DNA of 64,000 bases from an uncultured Pirellulaceae bacterium. GTDB lineage: Bacteria > Planctomycetota > Planctomycetia > Pirellulales > Pirellulaceae. Position 1 is the first letter of the stretch; every line of letters begins with the position of its first letter. Shown here piece by piece: positions 24,751 through 32,757 of this stretch. The stretch spans positions 99,898-163,897 of the forward strand of contig CALKGE010000003.1 of NCBI GenBank assembly GCA_938084685.1, in the 5' to 3' direction. The notes beneath the pieces were generated by a model, which worked only from the letters and a program-made list of their open reading frames with translations, did not search any database and had not been told where the DNA came from. Both the position numbers and the translations under genes were made by a program.

Positions 24751-25626
24751 ATGAGTAAACCCCGAATTCTGGTGCAATTGGATACTGATAAACATGCCAG
24801 TGTTTTTGATGCCGTGGTAGCAGTTGATTCCGGCGTCCACCAGCTTTTTCAATACAGCCAGGTGACGGTCGAAGATGCAGAGGGATTGGTGCATGGAGCC
24901 ATGTTTACACGGGGGCCTGCTGATTTGCATCAGACCGCTGTTTTTGTTGGTGGCGCAGATGTGGCAGCAGGCGAAGCATTGGTAGAAGCCGTTACCAATT
25001 GTTTTTTCGGGCCGATGCGTGTGAGCGTTATGATGGACTCGAACGGCTCAAACACAACAGCGGCTGCAGCGGTCCTGGCAGCTGCCCGTCATACCGATTT
25101 GAAAGGAGCGTCGGCGTTAGTGCTTGCCGGAACAGGGCCTGTGGGCCTCCGTGCAGGCCGTTTGCTGGCCGGTCAGGGAGCCATTGTGAAACTCGGTTCA
25201 CGAACGCTGGAACGTGCGCAGCAAGCTGCTGAGCGAATTGAAGCCTGTGTAAGCGGAGCGGACGTCCAAGGCGTTGTGACTTCCAATGAAGAAGAGACGT
25301 TGCTTGCCGCTCGAGACGTTGACGTAATTATTGCAGCAGGGGCAGCCGGAATTCAGTTGATTTCAGAGGCCGCCTGGACAAGTTGTGAAAATCTTAAAGT
25401 GATTATCGATCTCAACGCAGTTCCTCCTGTGGGAGTGGAGGGCGTGGGCGTAACGGATAAAGCAGTCGATGCCCATGGTAAAATTACCTATGGTGCAATT
25501 GGAGTGGGAGGCACAAAGATGAAGATTCACAAAGCTGCCATTGCCCGGTTGTTTGAATCGAATGATCAGGTACTCGATGCTGAAGAAATCTATGCTATCG
25601 GCAAGTCGCTTGAGGATGATAGTTAG
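24751..25626 (+). CDS. mtdC: NAD(P)-dependent methylene-tetrahydromethanopterin dehydrogenase (MtdA/B/C family)
   Basis: 291-aa ORF with family blocks ILVQLDTDKHASVFDAVVA.DSG, FVGG, MMDSNGSNTTAAAAV and GTGPVG. The MtdC label follows the planctomycete class and is inferred from taxonomic context. Confidence 0.85.
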   Translation: MSKPRILVQLDTDKHASVFDAVVAVDSGVHQLFQYSQVTVEDAEGLVHGAMFTRGPADLHQTAVFVGGADVAAGEALVEAVTNCFFGPMRVSVMMDSNGSNTTAAAAVLAAARHTDLKGASALVLAGTGPVGLRAGRLLAGQGAIVKLGSRTLERAQQAAERIEACVSGADVQGVVTSNEEETLLAARDVDVIIAAGAAGIQLISEAAWTSCENLKVIIDLNAVPPVGVEGVGVTDKAVDAHGKITYGAIGVGGTKMKIHKAAIARLFESNDQVLDAEEIYAIGKSLEDDS

Positions 25627-25648: not shown

Positions 25649-26983
25649 ATGAGTTTGCTTACGTTCCGATGCCCTGTTTGTGATGGCATGTTTCGGGCAG
25701 AAGAGTCTGCTGATGAGGTTACATGCCCGCATTGTCAGGAATCGATTGGATTGTTGAATGATGCAGAGGTACCGGCAGAGCCAGAACCGACCGTGAAACC
25801 GAGCGAGGTTACATTGTCGGTGACTCGAGTAAAACGCAACGCGCCGCTATTGCCACCAGGCATGCGAAAGTCGAACGAGCAAAATGCGGAAGCAGGTGTT
25901 CCCAGCCAGCAACAATCCGTTGCTCCTCCGATCGTTGACAACTCGGCCGGCACGCCTGATGCCGGAGTGTCCACAAGCCAGCCTGACATTACTGCGCAGG
26001 CTTGCTCTGAAGGTGCTTCTTTGGAGAATTCGGCGGAACAACAGAGTCTCCCTCCGGTTATTGAGGTTGAAAATGATTTGTCAGATCCGTTGTCATCCGA
26101 GGGAACAGACACCGGATTGTTACCGGAGGTTGTCACTGCAGAAGAGTATGAGGAAATTGTACTTCCAGCAGTGAGTGAGCAGGTGGATATTCAGAGTGCG
26201 AATATTTCAGAGTCAGCGGATGCACTCGAATCTATCGAAACACAAAAGCTTGAGTCGGTTGCGGCTGACGACCTGCTGCCCGCCCACCTTCTGGATGGCT
26301 CAGACGTTTCGGATGCTCAGGATATTCCAGACCTCTCAGATGAGACAGAGCAGGAAGAGGTAGAACAGGAAGAGATAGAACAGGAAGAGGTAGAACAGGA
26401 AGAGGTAGAACAGGAAGAGGTAGAACAGGAAGAGGTAGAACAGGAAGAGGTAGAACAGGAAGAGGTAGAACAGGAAGAGCCAGAACAGGAAGAGCCAGAA
26501 CAGGAAGAGCCAGAACAGGAAGAGCCAGAACAGGAAGAGCCAGAACAGGAAGAGCCAGAACAGGAAGAGCCAGAACAGGAAGAGCCAGAAGAGGAAGAGC
26601 CAGAACAGGAAGAGCCAGGGCAGGAGGGCCTGGCGTCTGTTGTAGCGCAATTGGATGTAGAGTTGGAGGCAGGAGCATCAGATGCTGAGATTTTGCCACC
26701 TTCGCTTGATGGAGCATTTGAGTTGCCAGGTGCGAAAGTGGCGTTGCCGGTCCCAGTCATTGAGACGGGTGAAGAAGATCACGTCGAGGTATCAGAGGCA
26801 GAAACGATCGCCATTCGACTACGCGATGAGCCTCAGACAGTAGGTTACGGTGCGAATAAGGTTGAATTGCTGAGACGAACTACTGATGAGAAGGAGCAGT
26901 TTAAACGCAATAAAAACGTAATTGTCTGGACGGTTGGAGCATTGCTGATTTTGTTGACAATGCTGCTTATGCTCAATCTTTAG
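25649..26983 (+). CDS. Zinc-ribbon, highly acidic repeat protein with a C-terminal TM anchor (tail-anchored); unknown function
   Basis: 444-aa ORF with an N-terminal CPVC...x17...CPHC motif. A long D/E/Q/P-rich region includes (QEEVE)8(QEEPE)~10. The C-terminal hydrophobic helix VIVWTVGALLILLTMLLMLNL sits at the very end. It starts 22 nt after the mtdC stop. Confidence 0.75.
   Translation: MSLLTFRCPVCDGMFRAEESADEVTCPHCQESIGLLNDAEVPAEPEPTVKPSEVTLSVTRVKRNAPLLPPGMRKSNEQNAEAGVPSQQQSVAPPIVDNSAGTPDAGVSTSQPDITAQACSEGASLENSAEQQSLPPVIEVENDLSDPLSSEGTDTGLLPEVVTAEEYEEIVLPAVSEQVDIQSANISESADALESIETQKLESVAADDLLPAHLLDGSDVSDAQDIPDLSDETEQEEVEQEEIEQEEVEQEEVEQEEVEQEEVEQEEVEQEEVEQEEPEQEEPEQEEPEQEEPEQEEPEQEEPEQEEPEQEEPEEEEPEQEEPGQEGLASVVAQLDVELEAGASDAEILPPSLDGAFELPGAKVALPVPVIETGEEDHVEVSEAETIAIRLRDEPQTVGYGANKVELLRRTTDEKEQFKRNKNVIVWTVGALLILLTMLLMLNL
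26351..26620. repeat. In-frame 15-bp tandem repeat array, 18 units in two homogeneous blocks
   Basis: Units 1-8 are CAGGAAGAGGTAGAA (unit 2 has ATA). Units 9-16 are CAGGAAGAGCCAGAA. Unit 17 is GAGGAAGAGCCAGAA and unit 18 is CAGGAAGAGCCAGGG. Read directly from the sequence. Confidence 0.95.
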
Positions 26984-28612
26984 TTAGCTGCGACTAAATC
27001 CAAGGTAGAAGCTGAATACCTGTTTGTCATCGGTATCGGCGTGATGGATTGGGAACCCAAAGTCGAGCGCAAAGGGTGCCTGAGACATAAACGGCATGGA
27101 AATACGCAATCCGGCTCCCACGACAACTCGGAAGTTATCAGGGTCAATATTGTAATCCTGCTCAACGGTTCCAAAGTCTGTAAAAACAACTCCTTTAAGC
27201 ATGTCATCGGCAGTGAAGGGGAACAGGTATTGGACCGTACCGAGGAATCGATGGTGCCCTCCAACTCGCACTCCGCTCACTTCTGGCGATGCTCCACGAA
27301 ATTCGAAACCTCGCATCGTAGAGTAACCACCGGCAAAATAATGGTCGTACAAAGGGGTGTCTTTTCCAGTAATATCATATTGAACTCGCCACGAGAGGAC
27401 ATGGCGTCCAGATCCGTCAGCTCTTTCACGGATCAAGTAGTATTTTCGGTATTCAACTCCACCGCGAGGGTAGACGTAGTCACCAAGGACCTGTTCGAAG
27501 TTGGCATTGAAGTAATAACCTTCTGTGGCCAGAAATGGGGTGTCGCGTGTGTCGTGACTGAGTCCCACTTTGAGTCCGACCAGATCATTGTGTCCTAAAG
27601 CATTGTCCAATTCAGGCACGCCCGTAATGGAGGGATCAGTGACTTTGATTCGTTCCAGGCGTACGGACGTGTTGACGCTTAAATCCGGGTTCAGACGGTA
27701 TCCAAAACCGACACGGCCACCGACTCGCTTTTCGTCCCAGTCGCGATAAATACGATCGTACATGAAGGCACTGGTGTTGAAACTGACTTTGGTGTCACGA
27801 AAGTAGGGATCGGAATATTGAAGCATATAGCGTTCCCACACTTCTCCCGGCATTGCTTCCAATCGAAAACCCTGCCCTCCTCCTCGAAATGCACGACCTT
27901 CAACAAAATCCTCCCAGCTCTCCGGGACAGCAGAGTAGTCAAAGTTTCGTTCGTCTATGACAATTTGACCGGTAACACCTGCATCCGAGTTCACACCGAC
28001 GCCGAACATAAACCGTCCAGTACGCCCTTCTTCGACATAGACATCAAAAGGAATCGTATTCATCGCCGCATCGGGATCAAAAAAGGGAGTAACGGAGTTG
28101 TCGTTAGGAGCCATCTCTTCCGGGACCTGGATCTGGGCCTGGCTCACCTGATCATCGACTCGTAAAACACGAGAGGGGTTGGATAATTCGACAAAGTCAG
28201 CATTGGTCACAGGATTTTGGCCACGAATGAATGTTTCCTCACCATACTCGAGGAAAGCTGAATCATCGAATTCAGGGATCAGTGAGTTGTCAGGACTGGT
28301 TTCCAGATGAAGGTCTGTATCACCTGCGGAGTTCTGATCGGAATTGATAATTGTTGTTGGCTGAGTAATGTCAGATGGTTGATTTGAGGATGGATTCACT
28401 GTCTGTAGACCATCTGCGGTCTGGTGGGGTGTGTCCGCCGATTCAGCTGCTACTTCCTGGGCGAGTTGTTCTAGCGCATGTCTTTCCCTGTTTGTCTCCT
28501 GAGCTGCTTCAGAGGGCGAGCCAAATCGATTGGCACAACCTGCGGAAGCCAGCATCAGTGAGAAGCAGGCAAGTGCGGCTGGAAGTTTTGCATTTCGCAT
28601 AAATTTGCTCAT
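26984..28612 (-). CDS. Omp85/BamA-type beta-barrel protein with its own lipoprotein-type signal peptide and no POTRA domains
   Basis: The track ORF is 26984..28849. The start is revised to M80 (MSKFMRNAKLPAALACFSLMLASAGC, a lipobox-compatible sequence). After a ~170-aa low-complexity linker the canonical barrel onset appears (VEEGRTGRFMFGVGVNSDAGVTGQIVIDERNF). The barrel ends in an aromatic-rich terminal strand (VFSFYLGFSRS). Confidence 0.8.
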   Translation of the reverse strand: MSKFMRNAKLPAALACFSLMLASAGCANRFGSPSEAAQETNRERHALEQLAQEVAAESADTPHQTADGLQTVNPSSNQPSDITQPTTIINSDQNSAGDTDLHLETSPDNSLIPEFDDSAFLEYGEETFIRGQNPVTNADFVELSNPSRVLRVDDQVSQAQIQVPEEMAPNDNSVTPFFDPDAAMNTIPFDVYVEEGRTGRFMFGVGVNSDAGVTGQIVIDERNFDYSAVPESWEDFVEGRAFRGGGQGFRLEAMPGEVWERYMLQYSDPYFRDTKVSFNTSAFMYDRIYRDWDEKRVGGRVGFGYRLNPDLSVNTSVRLERIKVTDPSITGVPELDNALGHNDLVGLKVGLSHDTRDTPFLATEGYYFNANFEQVLGDYVYPRGGVEYRKYYLIRERADGSGRHVLSWRVQYDITGKDTPLYDHYFAGGYSTMRGFEFRGASPEVSGVRVGGHHRFLGTVQYLFPFTADDMLKGVVFTDFGTVEQDYNIDPDNFRVVVGAGLRISMPFMSQAPFALDFGFPIHHADTDDKQVFSFYLGFSRS

Positions 28613-28619
28613 CTTCGAT

Positions 28620-30281
28620 TTATTTATGGAGAGTCGGTGGTGCAAACGATTTTGGCAGCGGAAAAGCTGAGGTGCGATCGATTTGCTGAGAGGCATTCCT
28701 GGCTGGACTCTGGCCACGAATCGTGTCGTAGCCCGGTTGGGTTGCTGACTCAGGGTTCGGGGCGGGAGGGAGCGCCCGGGGTTCGTTACGTGTCTGGATT
28801 TCTTCGGTTCGTACAACGATCGTGGGAGGCGATCCCATCGTGGTTCCATCGTTAAACAGGGAACTGTGGCGGAGGCGGCGTTCGCTTGAGAGAACGTCCT
28901 GATTGCTTGCCAGGTAGCCTGGGATTAACGAGAGTCGATTGAGTACGACAGAGTTTTTTGTATGTGGAGAGATTCCCGAGATGTGTACTGCGATTTCTCC
29001 GACTTTGAATTGCTCACCTTCGTCGATGTTGAAAACGACTTCGAGTTCTCCTGGAGTTTCCTGAAAGCGGATATCGGCGGATATTTTGGAATAGATATAT
29101 CCGAGTTTCCCGTACAAATCGCGAATTGATTCGACGTCACCATTAAGTTGTCCACGAAGAAAGAAATCGTTGTTGTTGGTAGCAATTAATTCCTGGATTG
29201 ATTGTTTGGAGACCTGTTCGTTTCCTTCCACTCGAAGTGAGGTGATGCGGTACCTGGGACCTTCGTTGACGATGAATCGCAAAGTGACCCAGTGGCCGGA
29301 ATCGTCGTAGTCTATCTGGCGTCCGACGGTAGCCTGGAAATATCCCAGATTTCGATAATAGGCGACAAGTTTTTCCATGTCACTTTCAATTCGGGACGGA
29401 ATGTAATCACCTCCGACGAGCCAATTTGAGAGTCGTGCTTTGGACTCAAACAGAGTTAAGAGCCTGGCATCCTGAGCTAACTGTGGATTGTTGCCGACAA
29501 CTTCGATGGCAGCTATTTTTTCCTTTGGACCCTCACTGATATAAAAAAGGACATCACGTTCACCTGGCTTGAGTCCTTCCAGAACTTCAACATGAGCTTT
29601 GGGGAACCCATGTTCGTGATAGAGCTCTTTGATTTTTCTGGTTGCATCTTCGATCGAGAATAGATCGAGTGCATCTCCCGCCCTGAGGTCAGTTTCCTTG
29701 GTGAGTTTTTTATCCAGATACCAGCGGTTGCCAATAAAACGGACTGAGGCGATGGTTGGACGCTCGAAGATTTCAAATGTCAGATGCAGTCCCAGATTGG
29801 ACTGTTTGACTAACAGCCTCACGTCCCTGATGAGCCCTGTACCGTAGAGTGCTCTGACGTCCTGCTGCACGATGGCGGAGTCAAAAGACCGATCAATTCG
29901 CGACTTTATCGTTCCATACAGACGCTCGTCTGTGAGGAATTTGTTCCCTTTGAATTCGATGGATGCGATGGGTGATCCGTGGTATTTAAGATGTTGTTGT
30001 TCTTCTTCTTGCTTCAGTTCATCCATGGTTTGCGGGTTACTGTTTCTGGCAGGCCCACGTACTCCTGGAGTGCCTGGTTGCCGATTCAGACTCTGAGGTC
30101 GCGGTGAACGGGCGCCAGCAGGCAAAAGTCCACTTGCGGGTTGCACTTCGCTTGTAGACCCGGGACGGAATGGTTCGTCGGTTTGGGCGAAAAGAGGTGA
30201 AGTCAGACAGAGTATTGCCAGATAACTTACCACGATTCGGGCAGTGAAAACGTGATTACCAGTGAGTTGAGTAGGGGTCAT
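28620..30281 (-). CDS. Periplasmic five-POTRA-domain protein (the BamA N-terminal part) with no beta-barrel
   Basis: 553-aa ORF with signal IVVSYLAILCLTSPLFA/QT and a Pro-rich spacer. Five POTRA-like repeats begin at IASIEFKGN, IASVRFIGN, IAAIEVVGN, ITSLRVEGN and VGEIAVHISG. The stop lies 7 nt before the barrel gene start. Confidence 0.85.
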   Translation of the reverse strand: MTPTQLTGNHVFTARIVVSYLAILCLTSPLFAQTDEPFRPGSTSEVQPASGLLPAGARSPRPQSLNRQPGTPGVRGPARNSNPQTMDELKQEEEQQHLKYHGSPIASIEFKGNKFLTDERLYGTIKSRIDRSFDSAIVQQDVRALYGTGLIRDVRLLVKQSNLGLHLTFEIFERPTIASVRFIGNRWYLDKKLTKETDLRAGDALDLFSIEDATRKIKELYHEHGFPKAHVEVLEGLKPGERDVLFYISEGPKEKIAAIEVVGNNPQLAQDARLLTLFESKARLSNWLVGGDYIPSRIESDMEKLVAYYRNLGYFQATVGRQIDYDDSGHWVTLRFIVNEGPRYRITSLRVEGNEQVSKQSIQELIATNNNDFFLRGQLNGDVESIRDLYGKLGYIYSKISADIRFQETPGELEVVFNIDEGEQFKVGEIAVHISGISPHTKNSVVLNRLSLIPGYLASNQDVLSSERRLRHSSLFNDGTTMGSPPTIVVRTEEIQTRNEPRALPPAPNPESATQPGYDTIRGQSPARNASQQIDRTSAFPLPKSFAPPTLHK

Positions 30282-30618
30282 TCGAATCCTTCCATGCGAA
30301 CATGGAACCCAGGATGTTCCTTTTACGAGCAGGGAGGGTAAATATCTCCTCGCCTAATAATGGGTGCGTAGCTCAGGCCCGCAAGTTACGCCAAAAAATA
30401 ACGGAAAAAGCATGATGACAGCAAGACAGATTTCGAGCTGATGGCCGTTGTTTATCCGCAAATCAAGCTGATTTGCGTTTGGTAGAGAGCCTGCGGCAGG
30501 TTGGATAAGCTGGTGAAGGTGGGGCCTGTCGGGGTCTTCGCAGGAAAGGCGTCAACGAGAGATTTGAACGGTTTGCTGGGGGCTTGGGGGCTTGGGATCC
30601 TGGGGGCCTTGGATCATC

Positions 30619-32121
30619 CTAGAAAGGGTCGCTACCAGCCATGGCTTCAGTACCGGAATTAAAGTCATCAAAGGCCTGGAGGCGTTCAGGAGCTTTATCG
30701 ACAAAGCGAGTAAAGTCTTTTTGCCACTGCACTTCGATTTCTCCAACAGGACCATTACGTTGTTTGGCGATAATGATTTCGGCTAAACCAGCATATTGTT
30801 CCGCGTCTTCGCCTCGTCGGTAGTATTCTTCCCGGTGGATGAACATGACGACATCGGCATCCTGCTCGATCGCTCCGGATTCGCGGAGGTGGCTCAGTTT
30901 CGGGCGATGGTCTGAAGAGCCTTCCGCCTGGCGGTTCAATTGAGCGAGGCAGAGGACGGGGACTTTGAGGTCTCGGGCGAGTCCTTTCAGTCGTCGAGCG
31001 ATTCTTGCTACTTGTTCCTGCCGCGGGTCCCGGGGGTTGTCTGGTTCGATTAGCTGCAGGTAGTCGATGACAATAAGTCCCAGTTGGCCATTGTACGTTC
31101 TCTGAATACGTCGTGCCGCCGATGCGATTTCACTTACGGTACGAGTTGGTGAGTCGTCCACATAGAGTGGTGCATTGGCAAGCTCACCTGCTTTCTGAAC
31201 CAGTTTAGCGCGTTCTTCATTTGAAATCGTACCGTTGCGCATTTTGTGGCCGTTGACCTGTGCGGCACTGCAGAGCAGGCGATCACAAAGTTCAAGTTGG
31301 GACATTTCCAGGCTGACAAACAAAACAGGAGCTTTGCCCCGGTGGCAGACGTTTTCGGCGATGTTCATAGCCAAAGCAGTTTTACCCATGGAAGGCCGTG
31401 CTGCCAGAATAATTAATTCGTTGGCATGGAACCCCCCCATCATGCGATCCAATTCAGTGAAATGTGTTTCTACCCCATCTTCCGTTTGTTCGCCGCTCAT
31501 TCGAGCTTCCATCCGGTCCATTGCTTTATGCAGGATTTCGTCGAGCTTTGAGACAGTTTGTCCGCCGCGGGCATCTGCAATGCCAAAGACCTTTTGTTCA
31601 GCCTGATTGAGTAAGGCTCGGCAATCCACAGCCTGTTCATAGGCATCTTTAAGGATCTCGGTTCCCACATTGATTAGTGAGCGGTAGATGGCTTTTTCGC
31701 GCACAATTTCTGCGTAGTAGACAGCATGTGCGGCATTGGGAACTGCGCCTGACAGTTCACCCAGATATTTTGTTCCTCCGACCAGATCATAGACATTTTG
31801 TGACATGAGTTCGGCACGAACTAGCATGGCATCAAGTTTTTTAGCAGCATCATGCATGTCGAGCATGACAGAATAAATCCGCCGGTTGGCTTCGTCGAAG
31901 AAATCATCCTTGTAAAGTACGAGCAGGATTTCGTCGATGATATCCGGCTTGAGGAGGATACTGCCTAGTACTCCACGTTCCGCATCCAGATCATAGGGTG
32001 GCTGCCGCTGAAGAATATCCGCGGTTTGCTGGATAGAGTTATTCTGTTGTTTGGGATCTTTAGCCATTGATCGATGTGAAAGTAGGCGACCGTAGTGATT
32101 TGAAGAGGGGTGACCCCCCAT
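30619..32121 (-). CDS. dnaB: Replicative DNA helicase DnaB
   Basis: 500-aa ORF with PPYDLDAERGVLGSILL, Walker A (ARPSMGKTALAMN), DYLQL and REEYY. The start may instead be M19 (nt 32067, MAKDPKQ). Confidence 0.95.
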   Translation of the reverse strand: MGGHPSSNHYGRLLSHRSMAKDPKQQNNSIQQTADILQRQPPYDLDAERGVLGSILLKPDIIDEILLVLYKDDFFDEANRRIYSVMLDMHDAAKKLDAMLVRAELMSQNVYDLVGGTKYLGELSGAVPNAAHAVYYAEIVREKAIYRSLINVGTEILKDAYEQAVDCRALLNQAEQKVFGIADARGGQTVSKLDEILHKAMDRMEARMSGEQTEDGVETHFTELDRMMGGFHANELIILAARPSMGKTALAMNIAENVCHRGKAPVLFVSLEMSQLELCDRLLCSAAQVNGHKMRNGTISNEERAKLVQKAGELANAPLYVDDSPTRTVSEIASAARRIQRTYNGQLGLIVIDYLQLIEPDNPRDPRQEQVARIARRLKGLARDLKVPVLCLAQLNRQAEGSSDHRPKLSHLRESGAIEQDADVVMFIHREEYYRRGEDAEQYAGLAEIIIAKQRNGPVGEIEVQWQKDFTRFVDKAPERLQAFDDFNSGTEAMAGSDPF

Positions 32122-32235
32122 TGTACTCTATTCTGGAATGGGGCAAATAAAATGAGGAGTATTCCAAACAGAAAGCCCTGCTCAAAATGAAGCAGGGCTT
32201 TGCTGGTGGGTTTTGGAAGCGGGTTTTTGAGGGTA

Positions 32236-32757
32236 TTATTCTTCGCCAGCCGGGGGTACGACCCAGACTTTCAACTCCGCCAGCTCGATATCCTGATGTA
32301 GTCGGATATTCACAGGGAACAGCCCATGTTCCTTGATGTGTCCATCAAGTAAGACATGTTCGTTATTGACGTTAATATCTTTGGATCGCAGAGCTCCTAC
32401 GATTTCCGAGATGCCCACGCTACCGTAGAGCACTCCTTCTTCGTTGGCTTTGGATTCGATGGTGACACTTTCATCATTAATCTTGTCGGCGATTTCACGC
32501 AGACCGGCAAGACGAGCTTCCTGTTGGGCACGAATTTTGGCCCGATGTTTTTCTACCATACGCTTATGGTGTTCGGTCGCGATGGTTGCCAGTCCTTGTG
32601 GGATCAGGTAGTTATTGGCAAAACCAGGTTTGACTTCAACGATATCACCAGACCGTCCCAGGTTGTCGACCGACTGGATCAGCAGAAGTTCAATACCTCC
32701 GTTAGGGCCTTTAGGAAGGCGTTTTAATACTCGTTTTTGTTCAGGGCTTCTTGGCAT
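32236..32757 (-). CDS. rplI: 50S ribosomal protein L9
   Basis: 173-aa ORF with the core LLLIQSVDNLGRSGDIVEVKPGFANNYLIPQGLA. It carries an N-terminal extension. Confidence 0.9.
   Translation of the reverse strand: MPRSPEQKRVLKRLPKGPNGGIELLLIQSVDNLGRSGDIVEVKPGFANNYLIPQGLATIATEHHKRMVEKHRAKIRAQQEARLAGLREIADKINDESVTIESKANEEGVLYGSVGISEIVGALRSKDINVNNEHVLLDGHIKEHGLFPVNIRLHQDIELAELKVWVVPPAGEE

Follow-up and report, generated by a model that had tools for sequence, protein, structure and literature searches.

At the core of outer-membrane biogenesis stands BamA, a conserved and essential protein that is currently a target for antibiotics. It is regarded as one chain, in which the coupling between the fifth polypeptide-transport-associated domain (POTRA5) and the β-barrel is critical. 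Each POTRA domain has three strands, in the order b1-a1-a2-b2-b3, with b2 at the edge of the sheet, so that b3 is the central strand, and among the POTRA domains POTRA5 alone is essential (PMC4930767). The hinge V418-G424 of the Escherichia coli protein must be flexible and couples the motions of the barrel and of the POTRA domains (PMC12494951). Other Omp85 proteins include the TamL/Omp85 lipoproteins of the Bacteroidota-Chlorobi, which carry three POTRA domains on the barrel's own chain and pair with TamB (Heinz & Lithgow 2014, PMC4104836; PMC4494059), and the 'noNterm' Omp85 proteins, which occur as extra paralogues beside a full BamA (PMC4104836; Leptospira, PMC11358297). Our literature search found no paper on a split BamA, in Planctomycetes or elsewhere; the BamA accession of Pirellula staleyi was given without comment by Speth et al. 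(2012; PMC3422733). Here we describe the bamA locus of an uncultured marine Pirellulaceae bacterium, in a stretch of 64,000 nucleotides (the window; contig CALKGE010000003.1, positions 99,898 to 163,897, assembly GCA_938084685.1), where two adjacent open reading frames (ORFs), ORF-A and ORF-B, together make up one BamA, the only one of the genome. The break between them lies inside POTRA5, and the barrel chain keeps the last strand of that domain. The two ORFs and their parts are listed below, with model confidence given as the predicted local distance difference test (pLDDT).

28620..30281, reverse strand: ORF-A (bamA-N), an exported POTRA protein of 553 aa, with its TAA stop at 28622..28620
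30186..30281, reverse strand: signal peptide of ORF-A, residues 1-32, read from the sequence, with a helix at 9-25 in the AlphaFold2 (AF2) model and predicted cleavage between SPLFA and QT
29019..29975, reverse strand: POTRA1-4, residues 103-421, from AF2 of the window's ORF-A (pLDDT above 90) and a phmmer match to E. coli BamA
28800..29018, reverse strand: incomplete POTRA5, residues 422-494, with b1 (FKVGEIAVHISG), a1, a2 and b2 (PPTIVVRTEE), without b3
28623..28799, reverse strand: C-terminal tail of ORF-A, residues 495-553 (59 aa), disordered (pLDDT below 50)
28704..28721 and 28653..28679, reverse strand: conserved motifs of this tail, IRGQSP and DRTSAFPLP, respectively
28613..28619, reverse strand: spacer of 7 nt between ORF-A and ORF-B
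26984..28612, reverse strand: ORF-B (bamA-C), the barrel protein, 542 aa, with an ATG at 28612 and opening MSKFMRNAKLPAALACFSLMLASAGC
28535..28612, reverse strand: signal peptide of ORF-B with a lipobox (MSKFMRNAKLPAALACFSLMLASAG directly before C26), by a PROSITE-type lipobox rule
28061..28534, reverse strand: disordered linker of ORF-B, residues 27-184 (~158 aa), pLDDT below 50 in the model of a congener (see below)
28211..28231 and 28151..28198, reverse strand: conserved islands of this linker, FIRGQNP and DFVELSNPSRVLRVDD, respectively, accompanied by P.FD and PNDNSV..FDP
28016..28060, reverse strand: POTRA5 strand b3 (NTIPFDVYVEE, residues 185-195) and the hinge GRTG, on the barrel chain
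26987..28015, reverse strand: Omp85 β-barrel, residues 200-542, with C-terminal FSFYLGFSRS, from Pfam, the congener model and Foldseek

An earlier note on this DNA, made from the letters alone, had described an ATG seven nucleotides past the ORF-A stop, followed by a lipobox-type signal, a linker and an Omp85 barrel. This layout is borne out, with a linker of ~158 aa; it is of low complexity and leads to EEGRTGRFMFGVGV and ...NTIPFDVYVEEGRTGRFMFGVGV and to the barrel. The note had also proposed Pfam searches with PF07244 and PF01103, and these match ORF-A at 1.6e-46 and ORF-B at 1.1e-46, respectively; Pfam matched no POTRA domain on ORF-B. On the NCBIfam model for BamA (TIGR03303, 741 positions), ORF-A aligns over 3-372 (220.4 bits) and ORF-B over 421-739 (163.8 bits). 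Both halves fall under the equivalog cut-off of 297 bits, and with its two ORFs the pair is not the single polypeptide typical of BamA. In the same collection, ORF-B scores higher for BamA than for TamA, and ORF-A higher for BamA than for TamL. The pair is the sole Omp85 (PF01103) locus and the sole POTRA locus of a genome of 3.43 Mb in 14 contigs; a search of this ~90%-complete genome found no second Omp85 or POTRA gene, which speaks against the idea, raised in the note, of a decaying paralogue beside a second, complete bamA. Each congener likewise has one barrel match.

The bamA locus was compared in 37 relatives and the window, giving 38 loci. In all 38, the barrel-coding region is immediately preceded by a POTRA-coding region in the same orientation. 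Whether orthologues have one ORF or two had been posed in the note as a check, and the two-ORF layout is found in 28 of the 38 Pirellulales loci (window included), in 12 of 12 congeners and in the closed genomes G024, G021 and G015. The frame offset between ORF-A and ORF-B is 0, +1 or +2 among the relatives, 0 or +1 inside the genus and +1 in the window, a variation which points to independent genes, unlike a recurrent sequencing error. The spacer ranges from 4 to 27 nt in relatives, down to 4-nt overlaps. Both frames are open over 28623..28849, as had been noticed before, the ORF-B frame extending upstream to 28849; this extension is absent or of another length in congeners, and therefore 28612 is the real start of ORF-B. 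The homopolymer suspected near 28800 is merely AAA. Both genes are under strong purifying selection: in close congener pairs, POTRA1-5 have a ratio of nonsynonymous to synonymous substitution rates (dN/dS) of 0.03-0.04 and the barrel one of 0.025-0.10, while the linkers evolve faster (0.1-0.55). Public databases hold many proteins of the same kind, either barrel-only (500-600 aa, PF01103 only) or POTRA-only (450-600 aa), the former including those of Pirellula staleyi DSM 6068 and Lignipirellula cremea; in the cultured P. staleyi, the split is present in a closed genome.

Two structure models indicate where the cut lies. In a congener (L063), whose proteins are 75-78% identical to those of the window overall (86% in the POTRA core and 90% in the barrel core), the two ORFs are in frame with one TAA between them; this stop was read through, and the resulting single chain, its two halves tethered, was folded on the basis of 115 aligned fused homologues (pLDDT 74.6, predicted template modelling score 0.67). 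In this model, POTRA1-4 each consist of b1-a1-a2-b2-b3. The chain A part of POTRA5 has b1 (423-433), a1, a2 and a short b2 (485-488, TIVV), that is, one strand segment past a2 against two in POTRA1-4. Residues 506-731, which comprise the tail, the signal peptide and the linker, are disordered, and a strand at 739-749 (NTIPFDVYVEE; pLDDT 66 over 731-740 and 96 over 741-750) then appears on chain B, followed by GRT and strand 1 of a barrel of about 16 strands. The top Foldseek matches of the tethered model are full-length E. coli BamA proteins in β-barrel assembly machinery (BAM) complexes, matched over both halves (E ~1e-47, target-normalised template modelling score at most 0.66). When the window's ORF-A was folded alone by AF2 with 111 POTRA-only homologues (pLDDT 82.4), POTRA1-4 were intact, each with a complete b1-a1-a2-b2-b3 unit, and POTRA5 was left as two helices, without strands or sheet. 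Together with the known POTRA topology, the two models place the fission in the b2-b3 loop of POTRA5, with the central strand going to the barrel chain. bamA has been split inside the long disordered insert that the Planctomycetia carry in this loop.

This position modifies two statements of the earlier note. ORF-A does have a signal peptide (followed by a low-complexity segment up to about residue 100) and POTRA repeats, but it does not stop just after POTRA5: it ends at POTRA5 b2 plus the 59-aa tail, the third strand being in ORF-B, and five POTRA domains are reached only by adding this strand to the POTRA5 of ORF-A. The note's concern about the POTRA5-barrel connection was sound as to its importance, but the connection is not severed, the cut being one loop earlier, inside POTRA5. 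On chain B, ...FDVYVEE-GRTG-RFMFGVGV contains the flexible hinge linking POTRA5 b3 to barrel b1, and its VYVEE-GRTG part corresponds to V418-G424 of the E. coli protein. Since the hinge is kept covalent in chain B, the concern is met by the position of the cut itself.

The segments on either side of the break carry conserved elements of their own. A PROSITE-type lipobox pattern is present in 24 of the 28 split barrel ORFs, that of the window reading CFSLMLASAG before the cysteine; two more are near misses (LAGC and ANGC) and two are type-I-like. The genome has genes for both Lgt and LspA, and to judge from its signal ORF-B would be acylated at Cys26. The linkers of fused proteins, 181-383 aa long and rich in proline and glutamine, contain neither a cysteine nor a hydrophobic stretch. 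Fused and split forms both conserve xxRGQSP(D), some 30-40 aa past POTRA5 b2, and then [VI][VI]RGQxP, and wherever both RGQ motifs are recognisable the break falls between them. In each of the two alignments, which together comprise 227 fused and split homologues in addition to the query sequences, R-G-Q-x-P reaches a conservation of 90% or more; both copies sit in segments modelled as disordered, the second nearer the barrel. RGQxP was also considered as a genome-wide motif and rejected: only the two BamA sites have a comparable context, and five other matches look like chance. Within the genus, the linkers share the islands DRTSAFPL, P.FD, DFV.L.NP..LR.DD and PND.SV.

We regard it as probable that the locus encodes a functional, evolutionarily fixed two-chain BamA, the chains of which are rejoined by strand complementation. 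Chain A would be exported via its type I signal and form a soluble periplasmic arm made of POTRA1-4 and the incomplete POTRA5 (b1-a1-a2-b2). Chain B would be exported separately via its lipoprotein signal, with Cys26 acylated, and would consist of the ~158-aa flexible linker, the central strand b3 of POTRA5, an intact hinge and a 16-strand barrel inserted in the outer membrane. In the periplasm, b3 of chain B (185-195) would slot between b1 and b2 of the chain A POTRA5, a re-joining of the chains that is presumably needed, as POTRA5 is the sole essential POTRA. The complementation would restore this domain and a BamA-like machine in which the coupling of POTRA5, hinge and barrel is still covalent. 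The lipid anchor and the RGQSP-type motifs of both linkers would probably aid localisation or partner binding, and the anchor may guide the barrel or keep the long linker in check. A more far-reaching version can be put forward tentatively, as possible but falling somewhat short of an even chance: POTRA5 would be an obligate two-chain domain, to which a lipid-anchored barrel chain donates the central strand for a secreted POTRA arm, BAM in the Pirellulaceae being assembled, and perhaps exchanged or regulated, by periplasmic donor-strand complementation, and this arrangement having originated or reverted on three or more occasions in one order. In a bolder version still, which is suggested by the absence of a detected Lol carrier, the acyl anchor might never leave the inner membrane and the ~158-aa linker tether the outer-membrane barrel across the periplasm.

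Several points weigh against this picture. The tethered model was built on fused homologues and so largely transfers their architecture. The b1-b3-b2 pairing between chains appears likely from the DSSP strings of the two models and the known topology, and rests on that reading of strands. Two split lineages (L053 and L055) carry non-lipobox signals, and thus the lipid anchor is not obligatory. The Pfam model of LolA found no match in the genome, although this model is insensitive (it matches 5 of 14 control genomes). The search with PF13525 (BamD) gave weak matches of the tetratricopeptide-repeat type only, the best at 1.8e-10, and no clear BamD.

The alternative that survives best accepts two real genes and denies that their chains are rejoined by strand complementation: ORF-A would be a free periplasmic POTRA factor, and the barrel either a POTRA-less ('noNterm') Omp85 protein or loosely docked through the linkers. 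POTRA-less Omp85 proteins do exist (PMC4104836), the short motifs conserved in both linkers could serve another kind of docking, and the strand pairing proposed here comes from models and not from contacts. We nevertheless think this alternative unlikely, given that the chain A POTRA5 is one strand short and forms no sheet when modelled alone, that chain B keeps a near-invariant b3-like strand right before the hinge, a strand confidently predicted only beside POTRA5 in the model, and that the domain concerned is the essential POTRA (PMC4930767). Considerably less probable, to the point of being hard to entertain, is the continued production of a single fused BamA through a programmed event at the junction, either stop-codon readthrough or ribosomal frameshifting. 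It is true that a lone in-frame stop divides the ORFs in L026, L033-L037 and L039, but the ORFs are offset by +1 in the window and by 0 or +2 in other loci, the spacer sequences are not conserved, conservation of a slippery site was not seen, and the fused product would have a signal peptide and lipobox buried within a periplasmic linker. The least credible explanation, a sequencing or assembly frameshift in, or decay of, an ordinary single-chain bamA, to which the overlap of open frames and the origin of the sequence in a 14-contig metagenome-assembled genome might lend colour, is dismissed by the split in all 12 congeners, each assembled independently, and in closed genomes (28 of 38 loci in all) with differing offsets, by the start codon, signal peptide and lipobox conserved directly past the stop, by dN/dS far below 1 in both genes and by the lack of any other bamA in the genome, so that the genuine split favoured in the earlier note is supported.

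The distribution of the two-chain BamA was surveyed in an even sample of 141 Pirellulales genomes at a completeness of at least 90%. Split-sized frames (~530-740 aa) were found in 10 of 11 Pirellulaceae and in about seven other families, and most other families of the order have one frame of 940-1460 aa. All 15 genomes sampled from the sister order, which belongs to the same class, have a fused BamA (950-1206 aa), and in the rest of the phylum BamA has the ordinary length of ~780-900 aa. These surveys make the long insert a trait of the class and confine fission to the Pirellulales. When the POTRA and barrel parts were concatenated and a maximum-likelihood tree was built from them, four changes between split and fused were needed, at least three of them forced by well-supported branches. 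A single fission without reversal was rejected: the tree that groups all fused forms is worse by 76.6 log-likelihood units (approximately unbiased test, p = 0.00016, the group having been named only once the tree had been seen), and fission was therefore repeated, or reversed. Horizontal gene transfer may lie behind the pattern.

Within the Pirellulaceae, one locus (L040, genome G014) has a single fused ORF of 1034 aa, and the gene tree places it, though with weak support, outside the clade of the family. Another member (G453) has a long frame of 964 aa, judged by frame size only, and the rest of the family is split. Retention, re-fusion or transfer could account for these long forms. In another family of the phylum, one genome (G102:C5:2582891-2583946) has a barrel match in a 638-aa frame lying mid-contig, its family relatives having ~795 aa; BamA may here have been truncated or split independently, outside the Pirellulales.

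As to the surroundings of the locus, rplI (L9) and dnaB lie directly upstream of both bamA genes (30619..32757, reverse strand), and the congener L063 has the matching order dnaB-POTRA-barrel. A promoter and terminator scan of 26700..30700 stayed at chance level, with no signal between ORF-A and ORF-B. The two adjacent genes are probably co-transcribed. The gene at 25649..26983 (forward strand) is convergent with ORF-B. Its product, for which there is no Pfam match, has a zinc-ribbon-like motif (CxxC...CxxC) in its N-terminal part and a hydrophobic segment in its C-terminal part, separated by a very acidic run (EEVEQ/EEPEQ) that is encoded by 18.5 copies of a 15-nt tandem repeat (26342..26618); a homologue with another acidic repeat (ETEQ) occupies the same position in L063. 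The gene at 24751..25626 (forward strand) is methylene-tetrahydromethanopterin dehydrogenase-like (PF09176, Mpt_N, 1.7e-31). A tetrahydromethanopterin-linked C1 pathway is known in Planctomycetes, and this gene fits it.

A natural, selected two-chain BamA would indicate which covalent link is dispensable, namely the POTRA5 b2-b3 loop, and which is retained, namely that from b3 through the hinge to the barrel. It would offer a natural system in which to study the coupling of POTRA and barrel motions, and it prompts one to ask by what route Planctomycetes would sort a lipidated barrel. As the split occurs in the cultured Pirellula staleyi and Lignipirellula cremea, these ideas are directly testable. 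Annotation pipelines label one half 'BamA/TamA family protein' and the other 'POTRA domain-containing protein', and surveys for a complete bamA miss the split.

How, then, does this locus compare with the systems already described? With TamL, the resemblance does not go far: here the POTRA domains are on a separate chain and ORF-B has none, and a TamL-type Omp85 lipoprotein was rejected on that ground and because a model search of the genome found no TamB. With the 'noNterm' Omp85 proteins, ORF-B has in common a barrel chain without a complete POTRA domain of its own; a 'noNterm' paralogue was likewise rejected, since ORF-B belongs to the sole Omp85 locus, keeps POTRA5 b3 and the hinge, and has a POTRA gene immediately upstream in 38 of 38 loci. 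The fused long-linker BamA proteins of the Lacipirellulaceae, Thermoguttaceae and Planctomycetales are closer: they are orthologous (37-55% identity), have a Pro/Gln-rich insert in the same place and share the RGQSPD and [VI][VI]RGQxP motifs with the split pair, but they are encoded by one ORF of 950-1450 aa whose linker has no stop, internal signal peptide or cysteine. With canonical BamA (E. coli, Neisseria; TIGR03303; PDB 5D0O, 4K3B), finally, the pair has in common five POTRA units, the hinge, a 16-strand Omp85 barrel and the status of sole Omp85 protein. It differs in being made of two polypeptides, cut in the POTRA5 b2-b3 loop where a disordered insert of ~250 aa in total is found, and in the lipoprotein-type signal that the barrel chain carries for itself. 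The two-chain form is thus a real and conserved variant of the known BamA machine.

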